Assembly: GCA_016840425.1 (NCBI GenBank) | Contig: JAEOSI010000084.1 | Location: 1-8,568, forward strand | DNA length: 8,568 bases | From: Candidatus Wukongarchaeum yapensis | GTDB taxonomy: Archaea; Asgardarchaeota; Wukongarchaeia; Wukongarchaeales; Wukongarchaeaceae | Direction: 5' to 3' | Shown here: one piece after another, positions 1-8,568 of the stretch | Numbering within the stretch: position 1 is the stretch's first letter | How the letters are laid out: each line of letters starts with the position of its first letter | Notes under the pieces: generated by a model | Database searches by the model: none | Told to the model about the DNA's origin: nothing | What the model saw: only the letters and a program-made list of their open reading frames with translations | Program-made: the position numbers and the translations under genes

Positions 1-1
1 G

Positions 2-454
2 CTTGCGGATGGGTCTACGATTAATAGTCTTCAGATTGGGCAGATTGGTCGTGCTTTGGTATTTAATGAGACGGAGTCTCTTAAGATTTTGTGGGCTTTT
101 AGTGTGGATTATGTTTTGGTGAATTTTGCGGCGGCTGAGATGAATGCTGGTAGTGATTTGGCGAAGGCTATTTGGATGATAAGGATCGGTCAGCAATATG
201 GTACGATGGGGGCGAATTTTGAAGTAAGTGATTACTATAAAGACGGGAAGTATACGGAAGCTTTCACTGATGGGGTTTTATACAGGCTGTGTATGTATAA
301 TATGGATGCGTATAAGGAGAAGTTGACTAACAGTGGGCTTTTTGATGAGGTGCCTAGTGTTTCTAGTTTGACGTATTTTAATGAAGTTTTTACAAGCACA
401 AACGATTGGGTACGGATCTACCAGGTAGTGTATCCTGTAGGCTATATCCCTTAA
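2..454 (+). CDS. aglB: Oligosaccharyltransferase AglB/STT3, C-terminal part (5'-partial; the frame is open from the window edge)
   Basis: The frame is open from nt 2: LADGSTINSLQIGQIGRALVFNETESLKIL...DYVLV...SDLAKAIWMIRIG...LYRLCMY...EVFTSTNDWVRIYQV. This matches the STT3 segment after WWDYG, including the DK motif DxxKxxxM (DLAKAIWM) and the terminal VRIY(K/Q)V. WWDYG itself lies outside the window. Confidence 0.85.
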   Translation, partial: LADGSTINSLQIGQIGRALVFNETESLKILWAFSVDYVLVNFAAAEMNAGSDLAKAIWMIRIGQQYGTMGANFEVSDYYKDGKYTEAFTDGVLYRLCMYNMDAYKEKLTNSGLFDEVPSVSSLTYFNEVFTSTNDWVRIYQVVYPVGYIP

Positions 455-639
455 GTTTTTGAGGGAGTTTTTTCTTCTTCCATTTTCTTTTTCCAGACTC
501 TTCTAAATTTTCCGTATCTGTCTTCTGGTGAAAACTTTGGGGGGTGTGCTGTCTTAACAGGACCCCCGCAAAAGGGGCATGTAGATTTTTGTAACGTGTA
601 TCGCATACATTTTTGGCATCGTTGAAGCATTTTAGGCAT
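451..639 (-). CDS. nop10: H/ACA RNP protein Nop10
   Basis: MPKMLQRCQKCMRYTLQKSTCPFCGGPVKTAHPPKFSPEDRYGKFRR has the zinc-ribbon CxxC...CxxC and the HPPKFSPEDRYGKYR-type Nop10 signature. ATG at 639 has GGAG (648-645) upstream, which is preferred over the TTG at 654. It follows aIF2-alpha, as in many archaea. Confidence 0.95.
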   Translation of the reverse strand: MPKMLQRCQKCMRYTLQKSTCPFCGGPVKTAHPPKFSPEDRYGKFRRVWKKKMEEEKTPSKT

Positions 640-660
640 AAAAACTCCGACCAAAAACTC

Positions 661-797
661 TTAAAAGCGTATCAGTATGGATCGTTGGAAAATGCTCCTA
701 ACTGTAATCCCCGCGTGAACTCGGGCAACGTGAGCAAATGGAACGGATCACATTTGACGTCTATGGAAGTTCCGTCTGTAAGGGCGGGGTAGTTCAC
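661..797 (+). mobile_element. IS200/IS605-family right-end remnant (tnpB 3' tail + RE hairpin; possible omegaRNA/reRNA scaffold). Left boundary uncertain.
   Basis: GAAG (766-769) + hairpin TTCCGTCT-GTAA-GGGCGGGG (770-789, all Watson-Crick or G.T pairs) + TAGT + TCAC (794-797). GAAG/TCAC fits the IS608-type guide/cleavage-site pairing rule. An open frame from 661 ends ...MEVPSVRAG*, like tnpB tails that run into the RE. GTGAACT (715-721) is complementary to the terminal AGTTCAC (791-797). Confidence 0.7.
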
Positions 798-1636
798 TCT
801 CTTTCGAATTGGAAGGAACAGTTTGACCGGTTTAGGGCTTTTTTAACTTTGTTAACCGCTTTGCTTAGGGCTTTTTCAGCGGTTTGAAAATCTTTTGCTT
901 CTACTTCGATGCGGTATCTTGGTGCGCCTAGGGAGTATATGTCGATTTCGGATTTTTTATCTGCTGATAAAGATTTGGTAAGGGCGTCTTTAATGATGTC
1001 GACTCCGTTTGGTTCCGTGCTGTTTAATGAAAAAATACCGGATACTTTAACTTTTTTAACTTCAATAGATGACTTTGCAAATTCTTCTAAGATGTCGGCC
1101 CATTCTTTCGGGATTCCTGCATTTATTAAAATTTCAGCTCCTCCTTCAAAAGCAGCTTCTAAACCCCCGTAACTGCTTCCAAATTCTTTTTCTAGAATAT
1201 CATTCACTTCTTCCAAGCTGAGGGGTTTCACTCCCATTTCCTCGATTCTTTTCTGGGCTAAAGCGAGGAGATTTGCTGCTTTTTGCGCGTTTTTCCATGC
1301 TCGAAGTGTTTCACGTTTTTGGGAGTCTGAGACCCTACGCATCGAGACATCGACTTGCCTTTTCTGGCGGTTAACCCGAAGCACCTTAGCAACTGCCTTT
1401 TGCCCTTCCTTTATGTAGTTCCGAATATTTCGCACCCATGTCGAAGCTATTTTCGGAGATATGACGGGAAATCATATCTTTTCCGAGATATGACAAAAGG
1501 CTTCTTCTTCTATGTTGGGGTATTCATCTATTTTGAAATAGGCGCCATATGGTGTTACCTTGTTGCAGGTGACTACAAGGAATTCGCCTTCTTCGGGCAT
1601 ATATTCTTCTTTTTCGTAACCTGTTTTTTTCGTCAT
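794..1636 (-). CDS. eif2a: Translation initiation factor 2 alpha subunit (aIF2-alpha/eIF2-alpha); join(complement 1481-1636, 794-1450); 270 aa after removal of a 30-nt intron
   Basis: The ORFs 1472..1663 and 794..1435 are in the same frame. The N-terminal S1 domain (PEEGEFLVVTCNKVTPYGAYFKIDEY...HISE) continues as IASTWVRNIRNYIKEGQKAVAKVLRVNRQKRQVDVSMRRV and ends with the ...YSLGAPRYRIEVEAKDFQTAEKAL domain. ATG at 1636 is preceded by GGAGG (1644-1640). Confidence 0.92.
1451..1480 (-). other. Predicted 30-nt BHB-type mRNA intron in aIF2-alpha
   Basis: The mRNA reads UCGG-AA^A-AGAUAUGA-UUUCCCG-UCAUAUCU-CCGA-AA^A-UAGC. It has a 4-bp central helix UCGG/CCGA, two 3-nt AAA bulges and an 8-bp intron stem. 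Cutting after the 2nd nt of each bulge removes 30 nt, including the in-frame UGA (1474-1472), and gives UCG GAA AUA GCU (S-E-I-A). Confidence 0.85.
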
Positions 1637-1663
1637 TTTCCTCCAAAGCTCCTTTAAGAGCAT

Positions 1664-1853
1664 TCTAAATTTTTGATGATTTAAAATTAATTATAAGGTT
1701 TATGAATAAATCTTTAATTCGCTTTAGAACTATGGAAGTAAAAGGTTTAATAAGTATTTTATGATTTAAAACCTAAAGATGATAATGATTAAACTTAAAA
1801 AATAGTTTTTATAAATGTTTAGTTTACTTTTTAAGATAAAAGGGGTTTTTTTA
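1664..1853. promoter_or_regulatory. AT-rich divergent promoter region between aIF2-alpha and rps27e
   Basis: Very AT-rich intergenic spacer between head-to-head genes. TATA-like TTTATAAA at about 1808-1815 (+) and TTATAA at about 1691-1696 (-). The exact boxes are not verified. Confidence 0.45.
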
Positions 1854-2063
1854 ATGTTTAGGTCGAGGAAAAGGAGAAAGGCGATGATTGTAAAACCTAG
1901 AAGTAGGTTTCTTAAGGTCAGATGTAGGGATTGTAGCGCGGAACAGGTAGTTTTTAATAAATCAAGTATGAGGGTTAATTGCTTAATTTGCGGTAAACTT
2001 CTTTTGGAGCCTGCAGGAGGAAAATCTAAGATTTACGGCGAGGTTATAGCGGTACTTGAATGA
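1854..2063 (+). CDS. rps27e: 30S ribosomal protein S27e
   Basis: PRSRFLKVRCRDCSAEQVVFNKSSMRVNCLICGKLLLEPAGGKSKIYGEVIAVLE is a classic S27e zinc finger (CxxC...CxxC, EPxGGK). ATG 1854 is preferred over 1815 on expected protein length. Confidence 0.95.
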   Translation: MFRSRKRRKAMIVKPRSRFLKVRCRDCSAEQVVFNKSSMRVNCLICGKLLLEPAGGKSKIYGEVIAVLE

Positions 2064-2131
2064 AAACTTGTTGTAGATGCTTTAGCGGGGCTTTTTTTCA
2101 AATTTCTGCCCTTTTTTAGAGGGTATAGTCT

Positions 2132-2731
2132 TTGGATTATGAGATTTTGTTACAAAAATGGCGAGAAATGGTAGGAAAAAAAGGCGTTTACGGTTCATTA
2201 ATTGATGAGGAATTTATAGAAGAAGGAAAAAAATTTCTATCAGAACTTAAAAGTATACAGGAAAAAAAAGGCTCAGAACTAAAGAATGTTTTATCAGAAG
2301 CGATGTATTTAAGGGCAAAATTCATGCTAGAAGAACTCCTAAAACTTGAAAAAAAAGAAAAAATATGGCAGGGAGGAGGAGAAGGACGAGAAGGACGAGA
2401 AGGACGAGAAGGACGAGAAGAAGGAGTAGAAGAAGAAGAAAAAATAGAAACTAAAAGCGAGAGAAAAGAAGAAGAATTTTCCAAGCGACTTCCTTTTCAA
2501 GAAGTGCCAAAAGAAGAACCTTTACTTTTAAAAGAATATATCACGGTGAGAATCCTAAAAGATCTACCGTCAGTGGTTGGAATTGTAGGGGAAAAACTCC
2601 ACGTTTTTGGTCCTTTTAAAAATGAAGATATAGTTATTCTTCCCAAAAAAGTTGCTGAAGCGTTCATAGAAAACAAAGTTGCGAACCCTATTCAAATGGA
2701 AAGTTTAAACATAAAAAAAGAAGAAATATAG
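2132..2731 (+). CDS. GINS complex subunit, Gins51 (Gins15) type
   Basis: N-terminal helical A-domain followed by a C-terminal B-domain with VRILKDLPSVVG...FGPFKNEDIVILPKKVAEAFIENKVA, typical of archaeal Gins51. TTG start with GAGGG (2119-2123) upstream. Lies next to PCNA and rps27e, as in the conserved archaeal cluster. Confidence 0.75.
   Translation: MDYEILLQKWREMVGKKGVYGSLIDEEFIEEGKKFLSELKSIQEKKGSELKNVLSEAMYLRAKFMLEELLKLEKKEKIWQGGGEGREGREGREGREEGVEEEEKIETKSERKEEEFSKRLPFQEVPKEEPLLLKEYITVRILKDLPSVVGIVGEKLHVFGPFKNEDIVILPKKVAEAFIENKVANPIQMESLNIKKEEI
2381..2416 (+). repeat. In-frame 9-bp tandem repeat (GAAGGACGA)x4 encoding (EGR)4
   Basis: Four exact copies at 2381, 2390, 2399 and 2408, inside a purine-rich, low-complexity linker of the GINS gene. 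Confidence 0.95.
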
Positions 2732-2747
2732 ACATTGAAGCAAATGC

Positions 2748-3509
2748 CTATTTTTCAATTCTTGGCGCTAGGAAATAGGTTAGTTTGCCTTGGCCTGGTA
2801 GACCAAAGGAGAATTTCATGGGCATATCTGAAGAAAATTCTACGGTAACTACGTCGGATAGAGAAGCGGCTTTTATCATTTTTGAGAGCATGTCGATGGC
2901 ATACATTGATTTTGAGCTTTCAGAAACGTTGTATTCATGGACGCCTTCTCCATCCTTTTCTAAGGATATTTGCGCTGATTGTCTTTCTCCTCGTGATTCT
3001 ATTTTTAAAGTATTATCTTCAGCGATTATTTCTACGTATTCTCCGGCAATTCCTGCATCTTTTAGTGCTTGTTTTAATAGGTCTGAATCTAGGCTTGTTT
3101 TAACGTTAAAATCTATCTCTAAGCGGGGTAATTCCTCGGATTCTAAACTTAGTATAGGTAGTGTAAAGATTCTGGTAGCTTTTCCCATAAGCTTTATTCT
3201 AAGCCTTCCCCCTTCCTCTTCGCTTGTTTCAAGGGTTAAAGCATCGCCAGCACCTGCTCTGGAAGTGATCTTTGAAAGTTCATCAAAATTAACACCGAGA
3301 ACAAAGTCCTCTTCGCAAACGTAGTCCTCGAAAAAAGCTTTATTAAGTTCTAAATCGACCATGGCAACGTGACTGGGATCCATTGCCCTGAAACTCAAAC
3401 CATCCGGGCTAAAATAATAATTCCCCTCATCAATTAACGCGCTGATAGCGTCCACGATCTGGGAAAAGATCCGCGCATCAGAAAGTTTCGCTTCAAACTT
3501 GCCGCCCAT
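2748..3509 (-). CDS. pcn: DNA polymerase sliding clamp PCNA
   Basis: FEAKLSDARIFSQIVDAISALIDEG...GLSFRAMDPSHVAMVDLEL...LGVNFDELSKI...VEFSSDMPMKFSF...LTYFLAPRIE; 253 aa with the canonical PCNA motifs. Confidence 0.97.
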   Translation of the reverse strand: MGGKFEAKLSDARIFSQIVDAISALIDEGNYYFSPDGLSFRAMDPSHVAMVDLELNKAFFEDYVCEEDFVLGVNFDELSKITSRAGAGDALTLETSEEEGGRLRIKLMGKATRIFTLPILSLESEELPRLEIDFNVKTSLDSDLLKQALKDAGIAGEYVEIIAEDNTLKIESRGERQSAQISLEKDGEGVHEYNVSESSKSMYAIDMLSKMIKAASLSDVVTVEFSSDMPMKFSFGLPGQGKLTYFLAPRIEK

Positions 3510-3585
3510 AAGATAAACACCCCGAAAGAATAATCAAAAACCTAAAAAAAGTACTTATAGAAAAATTAATCCTAAACTTATGAAC

Positions 3586-3957
3586 TTATCCCACTTTATT
3601 TTCCGTTCCACCACTTAATAAACTCTGCTCTAATTCAACAATCTTTCTATAAAGCTCCATATCTACTCTCTCTAATCTAGTGACAGAAACCGCCGTTAAA
3701 ACAACTTCTCCGCCCCGATCCAAATCAACGCGACCCATAACTCTCACAATATCCATTAACTCAACCTCCTCTAGAGCCTCAAAAACATTAACCTTCAAAC
3801 TCCCAGAACCATCATCTAAAACCAAATGACCCTGACCCATCGAAACAACAGCACCCAAAACACGAACCCAGACACTCTCATACTCTACACTAATCTGGCC
3901 TATAAACAAATCTTTTGCAGGAGGAAAAATACCAGTAGGAAAATCCAAAATACACAT
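3586..3957 (-). CDS. Single OB-fold protein, RPA14/RPA3-like replication protein A small subunit
   Basis: PAKDLFIGQI...VRVLGAVV...LVLDDGSGSLKV...IVRVMGRV...VDMELYRKIVELEQSLL resembles the Thermococcales RPA14 pattern (PA...V.L.G.V...LDDGTG...VRV.GR...D.E....I.ELE). It is 123 aa and co-oriented upstream of PCNA. Confidence 0.7.
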   Translation of the reverse strand: MCILDFPTGIFPPAKDLFIGQISVEYESVWVRVLGAVVSMGQGHLVLDDGSGSLKVNVFEALEEVELMDIVRVMGRVDLDRGGEVVLTAVSVTRLERVDMELYRKIVELEQSLLSGGTENKVG

Positions 3958-3987
3958 CTCCTTTAAAAAGCTTCTAAAAACGATTGA

Positions 3988-4090
3988 TGCGGGGGACGGG
4001 ATTCGAACCCGCGCAGGCCTACGCCACTGGGTCCTGAACCCAGCACCTTAAACCAAAAAACCTTTTTTGGCCGGACTCGGTCACCCCCGC
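3988..4090 (-). tRNA. tRNA-Leu(CAG) with an 18-nt D-loop intron at 21/22 (4049-4066); CCA not encoded
   Basis: Acceptor GCGGGGG/CCCCCGC, anticodon arm CUGGG-UU-CAG-GA-CCCAG, long variable arm and T-arm GCGGG-UUCGAAU-CCCGU. Removing the BHB-defined intron gives the normal D-loop GAGUCCGGCCAAAGG. Confidence 0.93.
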
Positions 4091-4190
4091 CGCTCAAAAA
4101 CAAAACAAACTTTAATACAGATCATATTTTAATTATGCTTTAAGGTTTTTAACTTAAACCACACAATTTTATAAGCTAAATTAGGCGATA

Positions 4191-5324
4191 TTATATTTTT
4201 GCCAGTAGTTCTAAAAGCACTCTTGGAATCTGTGAATAGGTTTCAACCTCTCTATAGCGGCCCCTACCTAGTTTAGCCAACCTTTTAGCGATATGGCTTC
4301 CTTGAGGATGGACATTATAAGGAGAGCGTTGAAGAGCGTATGCGGGATAGGGGTTAGGCGGTGTGATCACGTGGAGTTTTGGAAAATGACAGGCTACGGG
4401 AAAAGGTTCTCCTCCTCGATTATAATTGCCATCTGATATCAAAATACCCCATCTATTCTTTTCCTTGGATTTACTGAGCTCTTTTAACCCTTTTTCCAAA
4501 GCATCTCTTATATTTGTAAATCCTGCCGCTTCTATCTCTAAAACTCTATCCACAAGTGTGTAAACATTTACTTGTTCATCGAGTTTTTTCAAAGTTTTTG
4601 CTTTGGTATTAAAAACAACTACTGCATAATCATCGTTTCGCATATGATGTGCTAAAACCGCTGTAGCTAAAGCTGCGTTGGTAAGTTTATCCCCGTACAT
4701 ACTCCCACTAGTATCCAACATGAGAGCGCCGACTTTCTTTCGCTCCTTTCTTTCTATCCCCACAATATCCTCGTAGGTAATGGAAGAAAATTTGCCCTTT
4801 TCCAAAATCTTTTCCAAAGTAGCATACTCATCGAACTCTGTAACCATGTCAGGGATATAGGGAATACGATGGATTGTTTCACCCCTCAAACCCTTACCGC
4901 TTATCCTACCGCTGCTACGTAAAATAGACTGGGCTGCTAAACGCTTAAAAATAGGTCTATGTTTTGCAGCGGCACTTACACCCCGTAATAAATACCACAT
5001 CTCAACGGGGATGGTGCTACCTTCACTAGCTTTATCAGAGATCAACCGAACACCGTCAGCGGTACATATAGGTTGTGCAACGGCAAAAATCCTTGAGCGT
5101 GCCAAGATCATTAAGGCTTCCAAATTCTTGTACTCAATTGCTAACTCGGTTAATTTCTGGAGAGTTGGTAAATCAAGCTCATTGACCACTCTGCGAAGCT
5201 TTTGAGGAACACGGCCTTTAACAATTTCGGCTTCTAAAATAGCTTTATTGTCGACTTTTCCTGCAAGCAAAACTTGCCTATCTCTTGAAACTCGGGGCTT
5301 ACCTGCTTCCCTCCCTTTCTTCAA
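4191..5324 (-). CDS. VWA (von Willebrand factor A) domain protein, CoxE-like partner of MoxR
   Basis: MIDAS motif LMLDTSGSM...FTNI...LISDG in the C-terminal half. The TTG start overlaps the upstream AAA+ stop (TTGA), indicating translational coupling. Confidence 0.85.
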   Translation of the reverse strand: MKKGREAGKPRVSRDRQVLLAGKVDNKAILEAEIVKGRVPQKLRRVVNELDLPTLQKLTELAIEYKNLEALMILARSRIFAVAQPICTADGVRLISDKASEGSTIPVEMWYLLRGVSAAAKHRPIFKRLAAQSILRSSGRISGKGLRGETIHRIPYIPDMVTEFDEYATLEKILEKGKFSSITYEDIVGIERKERKKVGALMLDTSGSMYGDKLTNAALATAVLAHHMRNDDYAVVVFNTKAKTLKKLDEQVNVYTLVDRVLEIEAAGFTNIRDALEKGLKELSKSKEKNRWGILISDGNYNRGGEPFPVACHFPKLHVITPPNPYPAYALQRSPYNVHPQGSHIAKRLAKLGRGRYREVETYSQIPRVLLELLAKI

Positions 5325-6250
5325 AAATTTTCCTTTTTCTTCCTCCCGAGGATTTCGTGTACTATTTCCTCAATAATACTCTCGACATTTCTTTCAACGC
5401 CGTCTTCAACCTCAATTTTAGTTGCAAGGCCCATGATGCAGACTTCTATCCAAATATCAATAGCCCTTGATTTATACTGGCGCATAATGCTTGCAATGTC
5501 TATTGCTCCCCTAACAGAGGCTCCTCTTCTTAAATCTGGATGATTACGTGTAGCCCGAGTGATAGCTACAGCATTACTTGTTACATCAGCATCCTTCATA
5601 CCTGACCTAAGCCAAACGATCTGTCTCTCTTCTGCTTCAGATTGATGCTCAAGTTTTACCCAAACGAAACGATCGCGAATAGCTTCACTTAAAGGAGAAA
5701 CTGCTACATATTCCCGCGGGTTCATAGTAGAGATGACGCAAAAATTAGGTCCGGCCCTAACCTTCCCGAGCTTGGGAATAATCATAAAACCTTCATCCAT
5801 AGCGCTCAACAAAGCATTCTGGGTACCTTCTGGTAAACGGTTAAGCTCGTTGATAAACAGAATTCCATCTTCCTTCATAGAACTCGTCAAGGGACCCGGG
5901 ATAAAACTGTCGTAGCAGAAACCTTTCTCAAGGACCAAAGGAGGTTCAAAGTGCCCTGTAAGTCTGGAAGAAGGGTATTGCTCATCTCCATCAATCCGGT
6001 ATAAAGGCTGCCTAAAGAACCCAGAAATGGCCAAAGCAAGCGTGGTCTTACCCACTCCAACATCTCCCTCCAGCAATATATGCTTACCAGAAAGCTTGGC
6101 CGCCAAACACCTCCTAATCTCAGCCTCCCGACCAATAATGCCAAACTTTCTCCGCAAAGCTTCGGTCAAAGGAAGTTCTTTAGATGACGCATCCTCAACT
6201 TCTTCAACTTTCATCTTCGAGTTTTTCTCTTTAGTCTTCGATTCGCCCAT
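5321..6250 (-). CDS. MoxR-family AAA+ ATPase
   Basis: Walker A GDVGVGKT, Walker B region ILFINELNR, followed by TQNALL, STMNP, A(I)RDRF and GASVRG motifs. Paired with a VWA gene. Confidence 0.9.
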   Translation of the reverse strand: MGESKTKEKNSKMKVEEVEDASSKELPLTEALRRKFGIIGREAEIRRCLAAKLSGKHILLEGDVGVGKTTLALAISGFFRQPLYRIDGDEQYPSSRLTGHFEPPLVLEKGFCYDSFIPGPLTSSMKEDGILFINELNRLPEGTQNALLSAMDEGFMIIPKLGKVRAGPNFCVISTMNPREYVAVSPLSEAIRDRFVWVKLEHQSEAEERQIVWLRSGMKDADVTSNAVAITRATRNHPDLRRGASVRGAIDIASIMRQYKSRAIDIWIEVCIMGLATKIEVEDGVERNVESIIEEIVHEILGRKKKENF

Positions 6251-6429
6251 AAAAACACCTAATTCAAGATTAGATCTTTTATCTTACGTACGCCCCATTT
6301 TTATTTATATCGGTATTTTTAAAAGATAAAATAATCCAACTTAACCCTCCCTGACAAAAAAGCGAGAAAAGAAAAAAGAAAAAAAAAGCAATATCTTGCT
6401 AAATTTAAAAACAGGGACTTTTACGAAAG

Positions 6430-6445
6430 AAAAAAAGGAAAAAAA
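6430..6445 (-). terminator. Oligo-U tracts downstream of tRNA-Trp (archaeal-type terminator)
   Basis: Two T7 runs on the minus strand (6445-6439 and 6436-6430), starting about 15 nt after the CCA end. Confidence 0.45.
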
Positions 6446-6459
6446 GGGCAGGTTTTTTG

Positions 6460-6588
6460 TGGTGGGGCCTGCGAGATTTGAACTCACGTGAGCGGGTACC
6501 TTCGTCGTATAAAAATCCTCTGGAGCCCGCCATGCTACCAAGTTGTGCCTAGCGGCTTGTTTTGCTGCTTTGTCTACATCAAGGCCCC
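6460..6588 (-). tRNA. tRNA-Trp(CCA), CCA-encoded, with two introns: 31 nt in the D-loop (about 15/16; 6543-6573) and 22 nt at the canonical 37/38 site (6498-6519)
   Basis: Acceptor GGGGCCU/AGGCCCC + ACCA, D-stem AUGU/GCAU, anticodon arm GCGGG-CU-CCA-GA-CCCGC after removing the 22 nt, T-arm GUGAG-UUCAAAU-CUCGC. Removing the 31 nt gives the standard GUAGCUUGGUAGCAU D-arm. Confidence 0.9.
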
Positions 6589-6597
6589 ATCGATGGC

Positions 6598-6652
6598 TCG
6601 AATCTCCTGAGACTGATCATCGTATATCACAGTACCCAATCCAGATCATCGC
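6598..6652 (-). ncRNA. Candidate box C/D guide sRNA in the 5' leader of tRNA-Trp
   Basis: GCGAUGA (C, 6652-6646) - 15 nt - GUGA (D', 6630-6627) - UAU - ACGAUGA (C', 6623-6617) - 15 nt - UCGA (D, 6601-6598). The architecture is symmetric and the guides pair with pre-tRNA-Trp at C39 and C34 by the +5 rule. The D boxes are non-canonical. Confidence 0.6.
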
Positions 6653-6671
6653 CAATTAGGACAAGATTTTG

Positions 6672-6679
6672 TTTATTTA
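6672..6679 (-). promoter_or_regulatory. Putative TATA box for the sRNA-tRNA-Trp co-transcript
   Basis: TAAATAAA on the minus strand, 20-27 nt upstream of the C box. No TATA-like element lies closer to the tRNA 5' end. Confidence 0.45.
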
Positions 6680-6868
6680 CCCTGCCTGTAACTAAAAAAG
6701 AAAGTTCTTAAAAAAACTTTACGGTTTAGTTAGACAAAAATGAACTAAACAACATCTATAAGGAGGCTTCACTAAAGCATTCATTATGGCATTAATTCTG
6801 AAAACGCTTATGAAAACATAAACTTAGGAAATAATGCTAATCATGCTCTTATTTGGTGGTTAAACCCT

Positions 6869-7156
6869 ATGTCTATTAATGTGAAGTTTTTTGCAATTTT
6901 TCGTGATCTTTTGGGCTTAAAAGAGTTACAATTAGAAGCGGGATCCAAAGAGAATCTAAAACTGATAGACCTTTTAGAGAGTTTGTTTCAAAGATTTGGG
7001 GAGGATTTTCGCTCCAAAATTTTAGAAAATGGAAATATTAGGCCAAAGGTAAATATAATGATTAATGGTAGAAACATAAAGTTTTTAGACGGGGTTAACT
7101 CTACCTTAAAAGATGGCGATATCGTAGCCATATTTCCCCCTGTTGCAGGAGGTTAA
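6869..7156 (+). CDS. MoaD/ThiS-family ubiquitin-like sulfur carrier (SAMP-like)
   Basis: 95 aa beta-grasp pattern VKFFAIFRDLLG...VNIMINGRNI...LKDGDIVAIFPPVAGG with a C-terminal Gly-Gly. Confidence 0.92.
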   Translation: MSINVKFFAIFRDLLGLKELQLEAGSKENLKLIDLLESLFQRFGEDFRSKILENGNIRPKVNIMINGRNIKFLDGVNSTLKDGDIVAIFPPVAGG

Positions 7157-7267
7157 ACTACACAATAATAAAAAAGCAAACCAAACTAAAATATTAAATT
7201 CTAACATTTAGTCCACATAAGATTAAAAAAGGAAGGAGAGGGCATTTTAAGGGCTTTTGTTTATATT

Positions 7268-7460
7268 TCCCACGAGGATGTACAAAATGTTTTCGGGTCC
7301 TAATGGATTTATTCCTGGTTTTAGGCAATCCAGTAATATGTTTATGCCGAGTTCTCTTCCACCGATCCATTTTCTCTCAGTTTCATCATCAAATCTTCGA
7401 GCTCTGAACTCGCCCTTGGATAAATCTGCTAATAAAAGAGTTAATACCAATAGTTTCCAT
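7268..7460 (-). pseudogene. N-terminal fragment of an aldehyde:ferredoxin oxidoreductase (AOR family), frameshifted and truncated
   Basis: ADLSKGEFRARRFDDETERKWIGGRELGINILLDCLKPGINPLGPENILYILVG matches the AOR N-terminus (VDLS.G....YIGGRGLG...PG.DPLSPEN). The ATG at 7460 is out of frame with this segment, and homology stops after about 65 codons. Confidence 0.8.
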
Positions 7461-7505
7461 TTACAAAAAGTCGCTAAGAAAGCTCAAATCCTTCAGGGTT
7501 GAGAT
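7461..7505 (+). other. IS605 left end: TTAC cleavage site, AAAG guide and imperfect hairpin
   Basis: TTAC|AAAAAGTCGCTAAG-AAAG-CTCAAATCC-TTCA-GGGTTGAG-AT. The layout and the TTAC/AAAG code match those established for the IS608 left end. Confidence 0.75.
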
Positions 7506-7550
7506 GAATTAGGGGAGGTGGGTGGGAGTATATATAAATTTGAGATATAT

Positions 7551-7564
7551 CAAAAAACTTATAT
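7551..7564 (+). promoter_or_regulatory. BRE/TATA-like promoter for a probably leaderless tnpA mRNA
   Basis: CAAAAAAC-TTATAT about 25-31 nt upstream of ATG 7589, with no SD motif before the ATG. Confidence 0.45.
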
Positions 7565-7588
7565 GCTATTTCGTTATATATTGTTTAT

Positions 7589-8002
7589 ATGAGGGTAGAG
7601 AATCCTATCAAACGATACAAATCAGGCAACCATTTGGTGTACAGTTGTCAGTATCATGTCATATTCTGTTCAAAGTATAGAAGATCAGTACTTGTAGGTG
7701 GTGTTGAAAAGAGACTTAAAGAGTTAATTCTTGAAAACCAGGAAGAATACGGTTATGAAGTGCTCGATATGGAGATTATGTCAGACCACGTTCATTTATT
7801 GCTGGATGTGAATCCAAAGATAGGTGTTTTTAGAGTTGTTAACAAGATTAAGGGATATACTTCCAGAAAACTCAGAGAGGAATTTCCAGCTCTGAGAAAG
7901 CGTCTTCCAACTTTGTGGACTCACTCGAAGTTTATATCCTCTGTCGGGGCTGTAACTCTTGAAGTTGTTAAAAAATACATTGAAGAGCAGAAGGGGAAAT
8001 AG
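7589..8002 (+). CDS. tnpA: IS200-type Y1 HUH transposase
   Basis: YSCQYHVIFCSKYRR, the HUH motif DHVHLL, LWTHSKFISSVG and the catalytic Y-x-x-x-Q (KKYIEEQ). Confidence 0.96.
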   Translation: MRVENPIKRYKSGNHLVYSCQYHVIFCSKYRRSVLVGGVEKRLKELILENQEEYGYEVLDMEIMSDHVHLLLDVNPKIGVFRVVNKIKGYTSRKLREEFPALRKRLPTLWTHSKFISSVGAVTLEVVKKYIEEQKGK

Positions 8003-8004
8003 AG

Positions 8005-8568
8005 ATGAAGAGGACCAACATCTTCAAGTTAAAACCAGCAAAGGAGCAGGAGCAAAGACTGTTCGAGTTAGCCGATAACTGTGCAAGGATGTTTAACGAG
8101 ATAAACTATAAGAGAAGACAGTCCTTTTTCTCGCGAAACTTCGAATGGAACACCGACGAATCCTACCACAAATACAAGAAGATTATAGGCTCTGCAACAG
8201 CCCAACAAGTAACAAGGAAGAACAACGAAGCTTGGAAGTCTTTCTTCGCTTTGTTAAGGTTGAAAAAAGAGGGAAAACTCCCAAGGCAGATAAGAAAGGT
8301 TTCTCCTCCAGGCTACTGGAAAGACAGGAAAACGGGGAAAAGGGTTTTAACCATTCTCATAAGGTGTAACTGTTATAAGCTTTCCGAGAACTATTTAAAA
8401 CTCCCCTTAGGACTAAAAGTTAGGTGGAAAGGAAAGAACAGGTGGGAAGGAAAAAAGCAGGGAAGGTTAGAGATAAGTTATGATGACCTCTCAAGGAGAT
8501 GGTATGCTTATATGCCGGTAGAGGTAGAAAAACCCCTACATCAACCAACAGGAGACAAGAAAAAGAAG
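8005..8568 (+). CDS. tnpB: TnpB RNA-guided nuclease (3'-partial; not in the supplied ORF track because it lacks a stop)
   Basis: ATG 2 nt after the tnpA stop. The frame is open to the window end: MKRTNIFKLKPAKEQEQRLFELADNCARMFNEINYKRRQSFF...SATAQQVTRKNNEAWKSFF...PPGYWKDRKTG...RWYAYMPVEV. It ends just before the expected RuvC-I (GIDLG-type) motif. Confidence 0.9.
   Translation, partial: MKRTNIFKLKPAKEQEQRLFELADNCARMFNEINYKRRQSFFSRNFEWNTDESYHKYKKIIGSATAQQVTRKNNEAWKSFFALLRLKKEGKLPRQIRKVSPPGYWKDRKTGKRVLTILIRCNCYKLSENYLKLPLGLKVRWKGKNRWEGKKQGRLEISYDDLSRRWYAYMPVEVEKPLHQPTGDKKKK

Follow-up and report, generated by a model that had tools for sequence, protein, structure and literature searches.

Whether the sequence lodged between nop10 and aIF2-alpha of Candidatus Wukongarchaeum yapensis is a working guide RNA, a part of the host genes, or the fossil of a transposon is the question raised by this locus. 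A first-pass annotation, made from the sequence alone, had described an orphan IS605 right end (RE) there and suggested that it might be retained as a stand-alone omegaRNA, loaded in trans by a TnpB such as the one encoded at position 8005. We compared the window, that is, the whole 8,568-nt stretch of DNA analysed (contig JAEOSI010000084.1, positions 1–8,568), with the rest of its own genome and with a sister genome, a Candidatus Hodarchaeota MAG of the same genus.

The Locus Between nop10 and aIF2-Alpha

Both host genes lie on the minus strand, nop10 at 451–639 (Pfam Nop10p), with the conserved start MPKML at 639–637, and aIF2-alpha at 794–1663 (Pfam EIF_2_alpha). From the nop10 ATG (639–637) to the aIF2-alpha stop codon, the gap comprises 154 nt (640–793), so that the length originally given holds with the nop10 start placed at the conserved ATG; with the end of the aIF2-alpha coding sequence as the reference, the distance is 157 nt, compared with approximately 58 nt in the sister genome. 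Among relatives, both the length of this spacer and the orientation of the two genes differ. A TATA-like sequence, TTTTAAGAG, is found on the minus strand approximately 25 nt upstream of the nop10 ATG (window 640–667), right at the deletion junction described below; its counterpart in the sister genome, TTTTAAAAGAG, lies at an equal distance from the nop10 ATG, and TTTTAAGAG may be a separate nop10 promoter. The aIF2-alpha gene of the window itself contains a 30-nt insert with an in-frame TGA (1451–1480, minus strand), absent from the sister gene according to the alignment; its removal restores the orthologous sequence, and its fold, a 4-bp helix UCGG/CCGA, an AAA bulge, and an 8-bp inner stem, has a bulge-helix-bulge shape.

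Based on homology among 16 copies, positions 660–797 (plus strand) are the 5′-truncated right end of a tnpB-only IS200/IS605-family element, of which they retain the last 138 nt, and align to C177:4405–4542 of a near-full element in the same genome. The earlier coordinates, 661–797, were correct at the end, whereas at the start homology begins at 660. The remnant of the tnpB frame (658–792, plus strand) retains the last 44 codons (...NCNPRVNSGNV.KW...EVPSVRAG) and a TAG at 790–792, and this tail shares 73–80% identity with the cognate TnpB C-terminus (tblastn). It leads into a terminal module at 765–797 formed by GGAAG (765–769), a hairpin (770–777/782–789, loop GTAA), TAG (790–792), and TTCAC; all eight hairpin pairs form, four of them G–U, and the hairpin is followed by the sharp terminus ...TAGTTCAC. 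Thus the GAAG-hairpin-TAGT-TCAC end and the ...EVPSVRAG* frame described initially are both present where they had been placed. The TGA stop codon of aIF2-alpha, read directly on the minus strand (794–796), falls within the element end, and base 797 is the third base of the last aIF2-alpha Glu codon. The flank at 798–815 (plus strand), which would be the guide of an omegaRNA, is the antisense of the last aIF2-alpha codons, as had been pointed out.

The region shows a subterminal hairpin with a short terminal sequence, a precise boundary shared with other copies, and continuity with a tnpB 3′ end. No left-end homology was found near 660; only the counterpart of C177 coordinates 4405–4542 is present, with host sequence resuming at 655, in agreement with the initial observation that neither a left end nor a nuclease gene is visible. 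With no left end at the window copy, it is neither a complete IS200/IS605 element nor a PATE. Taking all this into account, sequence comparison confirms 660–797 as an orphan right end of an IS200/IS605 element, probably remaining after a deletion.

A Family of Elements With a Common Terminus

The genome BLAST proposed in the first-pass annotation recovered the expected similarity to tnpB 3′ ends and right ends: window 660–798 has eight further matches in its own genome (78–88% identity, E from 4e-45 to 2e-23). A covariance model, R1, built from these nine own-genome copies (the window one included), detected seven copies in the sister genome. All 16 stop at one base, ...GTTCAC, with similarity lost right after ...TAGTTCAC, and three of the seven sister copies form the 3′ end of an open 422-aa TnpB gene. 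The homologous copies, their common terminus, and the TnpB C-terminal tail together bear out the identification as an IS605 right end, and window 660–797 coincides with the omegaRNA-scaffold region (tnpB 3′ end plus RE) of the intact copies, as had been proposed.

The protein of the family is matched by Pfam Cas12f1-like_TNB on C177 and C61, and the cognate TnpB matches TnpB and Cas12f chains from the PDB with E from 1e-8 to 1e-18. At the position of the canonical RuvC-II glutamate, the cognate TnpB of the sister genome (L041:364–1629) has Gly (VVVGDL), while the other TnpB family of the window, at 8005, has IGDI. The VVVGDL variant appears to resemble the “RuvC-II rearranged” TnpB clades, where the Glu is substituted and which are presumed active (PMC10691335).

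The most complete own copy, C177:2956–4542, comprises a left end and a tnpB interrupted by an in-frame stop; inside this cognate tnpB pseudogene lies an unrelated 205-nt repeat (C177:4058–4262, locus L002). Near-full copies of the repeat (81–96% identity) occur on C168, C77 (two), C88, C160, C147, C253, and C201, while partial ones are numerous elsewhere. The repeat appears to be a MITE-like family that targets tnpB genes or often lands in them. Four own and four sister copies are mini elements of approximately 360–480 nt, in which the left end and the last ~150 nt flank a short internal block, with one internal deletion common to all of them. Right-hand-only pieces, 139–417 nt long, number four in the own genome, including that of the window, and none in the sister genome.

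Left ends align from ...TTTAT/CTTCATGCCGCAAG... on (the slash denotes the insertion point), and TTTAT precedes nine out of nine aligned left ends, identifying it as the target motif (TAM). Four further own-genome empty sites, corresponding to insertions in the sister genome, read TTAT/, TTTAT/, CTAT/, and TTTAT/. Thus the empty sites and left ends replace the target motif TTAC suggested earlier by TTTAT (TTAT).

More distant sequences also resemble parts of the family. The scaffold has a degenerate relative at C12:8610–8739 (locus L039; 30 bits), which contains no ORF, ends with AGTTCAT, and adjoins a 214-aa convergent frame ending at its TGA. In at least five other Asgard genera (loci L042–L055), elements that are otherwise unrelated keep a terminal GGAAGC-hairpin-GTAGTTCAC module, whose hairpin shows compensatory changes.

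The Empty Site and the History of the Insertion

The sister genome aligns with window 1–655 and 798–948, with 43 nt in place of the 142 nt of the window, and its homology resumes exactly at 798. The sister junction is ...TTTTTTTTAT/TCCCTTTCGAATTGG, and the empty site, TTTAT/TCCCTTTCG. The sister aIF2-alpha ends with ...FERE, encoded as GAA TAA at its last position and stop, whereas the window has the identical protein end with GAG TGA, where G and TGA come from element bases 797–794. The empty site and this supply of G and TGA demonstrate an insertion on the stop codon and 3′ of TTTAT: the ...GTTCAC end of the element changed GAA TAA to GAG TGA, and the protein was unaltered.

At the left junction (657–667, plus strand), CTCTTAAAAGC contains CTTAAAA, a string common to the sister spacer CTCTTTTAAAATT and the tnpB 3′ end of the intact element CCTTAAAACG. 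The junction fits a microhomology deletion across CTTAAAA, which we infer from a 7-nt shared string and a spacer taken from another species. Similar events have been described for archaeal IS605-type elements, e.g., in Haloquadratum, where repeat-mediated deletions leave C-terminal and terminal remnants (PMC3119063).

The history of the locus may then be envisaged as follows. A tnpB-only IS200/IS605 (IS1341-type) element, or a mini derivative with both ends, inserted in the lineage of this Hodarchaeota-type Asgard archaeon 3′ of TTTAT, which overlapped the TAA stop of aIF2-alpha, and lay antisense to the aIF2-alpha–nop10 pair. A later deletion between the two CTTAAAA strings would have taken out the remaining spacer together with the left end and almost the whole of tnpB, shortening the spacer again and keeping the TATA-like motif before nop10. 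The remnant can no longer transpose, as it has no left end, and it has no cognate TnpB in this assembly; it would persist because it carries the aIF2-alpha stop codon, being otherwise neutral. Metagenome scans for the occupied junction and for the flank, in which an intermediate with the full element was sought, both yielded zero matches. We consider it highly probable that window 660–797 is an inert relic of a peel-and-paste insertion, and a fossil, rather than a working stand-alone guide RNA, is the most likely reading.

One alternative is that the fragment has been domesticated as a cis element, either as a minus-strand 3′ UTR, terminator, or spacer setting nop10 expression, or as a plus-strand antisense RNA to the aIF2-alpha 3′ end. 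It does supply the stop codon, and positions 794–797 are certainly functional now; moreover, the TATA-like TTTTAAGAG is placed relative to the nop10 ATG as its sister counterpart is. However, the sister species does without the relic, having a 43-nt spacer, and relatives differ in spacer length and even in gene orientation; no sign of constraint is seen beyond the stop codon, and the fragment differs from its paralogues by approximately 12–22%, as in neutral drift. We regard such domestication as improbable.

Scaffold Structure and Its State

According to RNAalifold and pair counts, the scaffold consists of four local or nested helices and a long-range pairing. Helix P1 (CAGT 673–676/ACTG 701–704, plus strand) is invariant in 16 copies; P2 (679–684/693–698) has one out of six pairs broken in the window copy; and hairpin P4, CAAATGGAA/TCACATTTG (CAAATG/CATTTG, 735–756), two out of nine, in the upper stem. 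The long-range helix P3 is formed by GTGAACT (715–721, plus strand) and the last seven nucleotides, AGTTCAC (791–797). GTGAACT, its perfect complement, and the CAAATG/CATTTG hairpin had all been noticed at the outset, and are present as described.

Across the 16 copies, P3 has standard pairs throughout, with one C-to-U change yielding a G–U pair; a distant Asgard relative has the compensatory version GTCAACT/AGTTGAC, and in another family the P3 partner lies at a constant distance. The 7-nt pairing suggested for this end is borne out in all 16 copies, with the one compensatory case. The terminal hairpin is 97% paired over 14 elements from several Asgard genera, with three pairs changed on both sides, and none of 500 shuffles reach the observed covariation score. 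Within the genus (16 copies), 90% of cells pair, and covariation does not rise above shuffled controls since the copies are too similar. The constraint on the terminal hairpin could equally reflect its role as DNA, for TnpA, instead of RNA. The single-sequence fold of 660–815 has a minimum free energy no better than that of shuffled sequences (z 0.09), so that folding energy by itself is uninformative here.

We considered whether the window copy is more decayed than the others, as several wobbles in the hairpin had seemed to hint, and rejected this: the G–U wobbles keep the hairpin, and three out of 34 pairs are broken, compared with two to five in the three sister copies with intact TnpB. The R1 model score is 137.7 bits, which we count as within the range of the intact-TnpB copies (138.9–154.1 bits). 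As pairing and model score are like those of intact copies, the sequence itself does not show loss of function.

Could the Relic Serve as a Stand-Alone omegaRNA?

If the locus nevertheless encoded a working stand-alone omegaRNA, it would be transcribed from the plus strand, loaded in trans by an unassembled cognate TnpB or by a non-cognate one of the 8005 type, and, with TCTCTTTCGAATTGGA as its guide, directed at a copy of the aIF2-alpha end flanked by TTTAT. Several observations are compatible with this. All five scaffold helices are kept, with pairing equal to that of copies with intact TnpB, and the position and extent fit, the scaffold at 660–797 being followed by the flank from 798. Gene-less PATE guide RNAs needing TnpB in trans have been discussed (PMC10055086), approximately ten open full-length tnpB genes of other families are present in the genome, and, given that the assembly is 92% complete in 277 contigs, an intact cognate tnpB may be unassembled.

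The available partners argue against it. In this genome, the cognate tnpB occurs only as the C177 pseudogene, with its in-frame stop and 205-nt repeat, and beyond the listed relics no high-identity fragment of the cognate TnpB is found. All other TnpBs of the genome are at most 28% identical over the full length, and R1 matches no other tnpB 3′ end in the genome.

The candidate originally proposed, the TnpB at 8005, belongs to a separate tnpA–tnpB IS200/IS605 element of another family (7455–8568, plus strand; Pfam Y1_Tnp; full copies elsewhere), with the left end at approximately 7465–7540, tnpA at 7589–8002, and tnpB from 8005 to the contig end. Full copies of the 8005 family on C117, C5, and C235 encode intact TnpBs of 410–417 aa with a different C-terminus. 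We rejected this TnpB as a partner: its family is approximately 27% identical to the cognate one, its right end, ...GGGTGGAGAGTATGTCAG, and scaffold are unrelated to those of the relic, and the covariance model gives no match.

Some features of the wider TnpB repertoire were recorded alongside. Apart from the Y1 transposase gene at 7589–8002, no intact tnpA was detected in the assembly, a 44-aa fragment being all that C117 contains; the TnpB TNB domain is matched 31 times in the genome, and about ten of these matches lie in open frames of at least 379 aa; and the left ends of the relic family and of the 8005 family share ...GATGAATT....

The target and the transcript of a stand-alone omegaRNA fare no better. 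The genome contains no TTTAT-flanked target, the sole match to the guide being the occupied site: a search of the own genome with the 16-nt guide gave no other match at up to one mismatch and none after TTTAT at up to three. TnpB is reported to cut the guide out of tnpB mRNA (PMC10278001); here the tnpB promoter and mRNA that would normally yield the RNA are gone, and upstream on the plus strand lie the stop of a convergent gene and T-runs at approximately 455–480. The scaffold matches no Rfam family, as a scan of window 400–1100 with Rfam covariance models at E up to 10 produced a chance AsxR match only.

With the cognate tnpB present as a pseudogene only, the 8005 gene belonging to another family, and no second target for the guide, the proposed stand-alone omegaRNA, including its loading by the TnpB at 8005, found no support, and we hold it to be very unlikely. 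A chance resemblance or an assembly artefact, with no transposon sequence at all, is already refuted by the 16 homologous copies with a common end, the translated TnpB C-terminus match, and the clean empty site in the sister genome.

The Family on Stop Codons

For the relic of a transposon, the preferred reading, the position on the aIF2-alpha stop codon is no accident, as the family habitually occupies stop codons of convergent genes. In seven out of 15 independent insertions, the TGA of the element is precisely the end of an opposite-strand frame of 106–467 aa. The frames belong to real host genes, many of them essential, namely, aIF2-alpha and those of a FEN1-like XPG nuclease, a D-aminoacyl-tRNA deacylase, a DUF711 protein, a 4Fe–4S protein, a TrmB-like regulator, and ATP synthase subunit F; the sibling loci are L008:1637–2698, L041:1634–2479, L049:101–1504, L057:536–1504, L056:1061–1504, and L054:1184–1504. 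Against the background, where 2.2% of the 14,446 TTTAT sites of the genome are at such a stop, the binomial P is 1e-8; against TTTAT sites outside long ORFs (5.8%), it is 9e-6. For two of the sister insertions, the empty sites of the own genome show a native TAA (deacylase) and TAG (TrmB-like) overlapping the TAM. In other Asgard genera, two out of 12 distant elements that share the TAGTTCAC end are on a stop codon, and hence the habit belongs to the genus-level family and not to every element ending in TAGTTCAC.

The motifs on the two sides of the insertion point are in the same register: (T)TTAT is the complement of N-TAA-A, and the end GTTCAC is the complement of G-TGA-AC. Due to these matched registers, an element could insert at the final codon of a convergent gene, including an essential one, and return a stop at no cost. 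Survivorship must account for a part of this enrichment. The motif TTTAT is also similar to archaeal TATA boxes, at which an insertion would do harm. A stronger interpretation, which we put forward tentatively and would sooner doubt than accept, is that the family is adapted to live on stop codons and that the relic in the window is an end kept as a stop after the host removed the rest. If so, the guide RNA would be the antisense of the last codons of the gene, and the cut made by TnpB after excision would fall in an essential gene, enforcing re-copying of the element.

What is new here is the replacement of stop codons at the level of a family (seven out of 15 sites, P ~1e-5). The relic itself is ordinary: an Asgard genome sheds a TnpB element yet must retain its last bases. 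If the pattern reflects target choice and not survivorship alone, transposons with RNA-guided nucleases would gain a simple route to safe sites beside essential genes of compact archaeal genomes. The family also offers a set for experiments, namely, an intact 422-aa Asgard TnpB, a candidate scaffold, and a TAM (TTTAT).

Comparison With Known Systems

In the 2021 work of Karvelis on the TnpB of ISDra2, the omegaRNA is said to be encoded in the tnpB 3′ end and the right end. The same location, the tnpB 3′ end plus RE, has been described for the Geobacillus IS elements (Meers 2023, PMC10055086). We also considered the GTTCACTCA motif found downstream of aCas1-associated Asgard TnpBs (PMC10691335) and set it aside, as the layout differs, with a hypervariable region preceding the motif.

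Like TldR and other immobilised TnpB derivatives (PMC10705468), the locus has a guide-RNA scaffold fixed beside a host gene. However, TldR loci keep a conserved nuclease-dead TnpB gene by the guide, whereas no such protein gene adjoins the relic, which is also not conserved across species.

In Haloquadratum walsbyi, PATEs are gene-less derivatives that arise via repeat-mediated internal deletion, and remnants composed of a C-terminal piece and an end are found as well (PMC3119063). The eight sibling mini elements of our family, having both ends and sharing one internal deletion, are similar to PATEs. The window copy differs, as its deletion would have fused element DNA to the host spacer and not two parts of the element; without a left end, it is not a PATE and is not mobilisable.

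Compared with the IS1341-type, tnpB-only IS200/IS605 elements (PMC10055086), the window copy is reduced to the right 138 nt, with no left end, tnpB, or cognate protein, and the cognate TnpB differs by the Gly of VVVGDL at the RuvC-II glutamate position. In other respects, the family resembles them closely: the ends are asymmetric, with subterminal hairpins; the target is not duplicated upon insertion, which takes place 3′ of a short motif (TTTAT in this family); the tnpB reading frame continues into the RE, and a structured region of approximately 140 nt immediately precedes the flank; and non-autonomous copies far outnumber tnpA, represented by one intact gene in the assembly.
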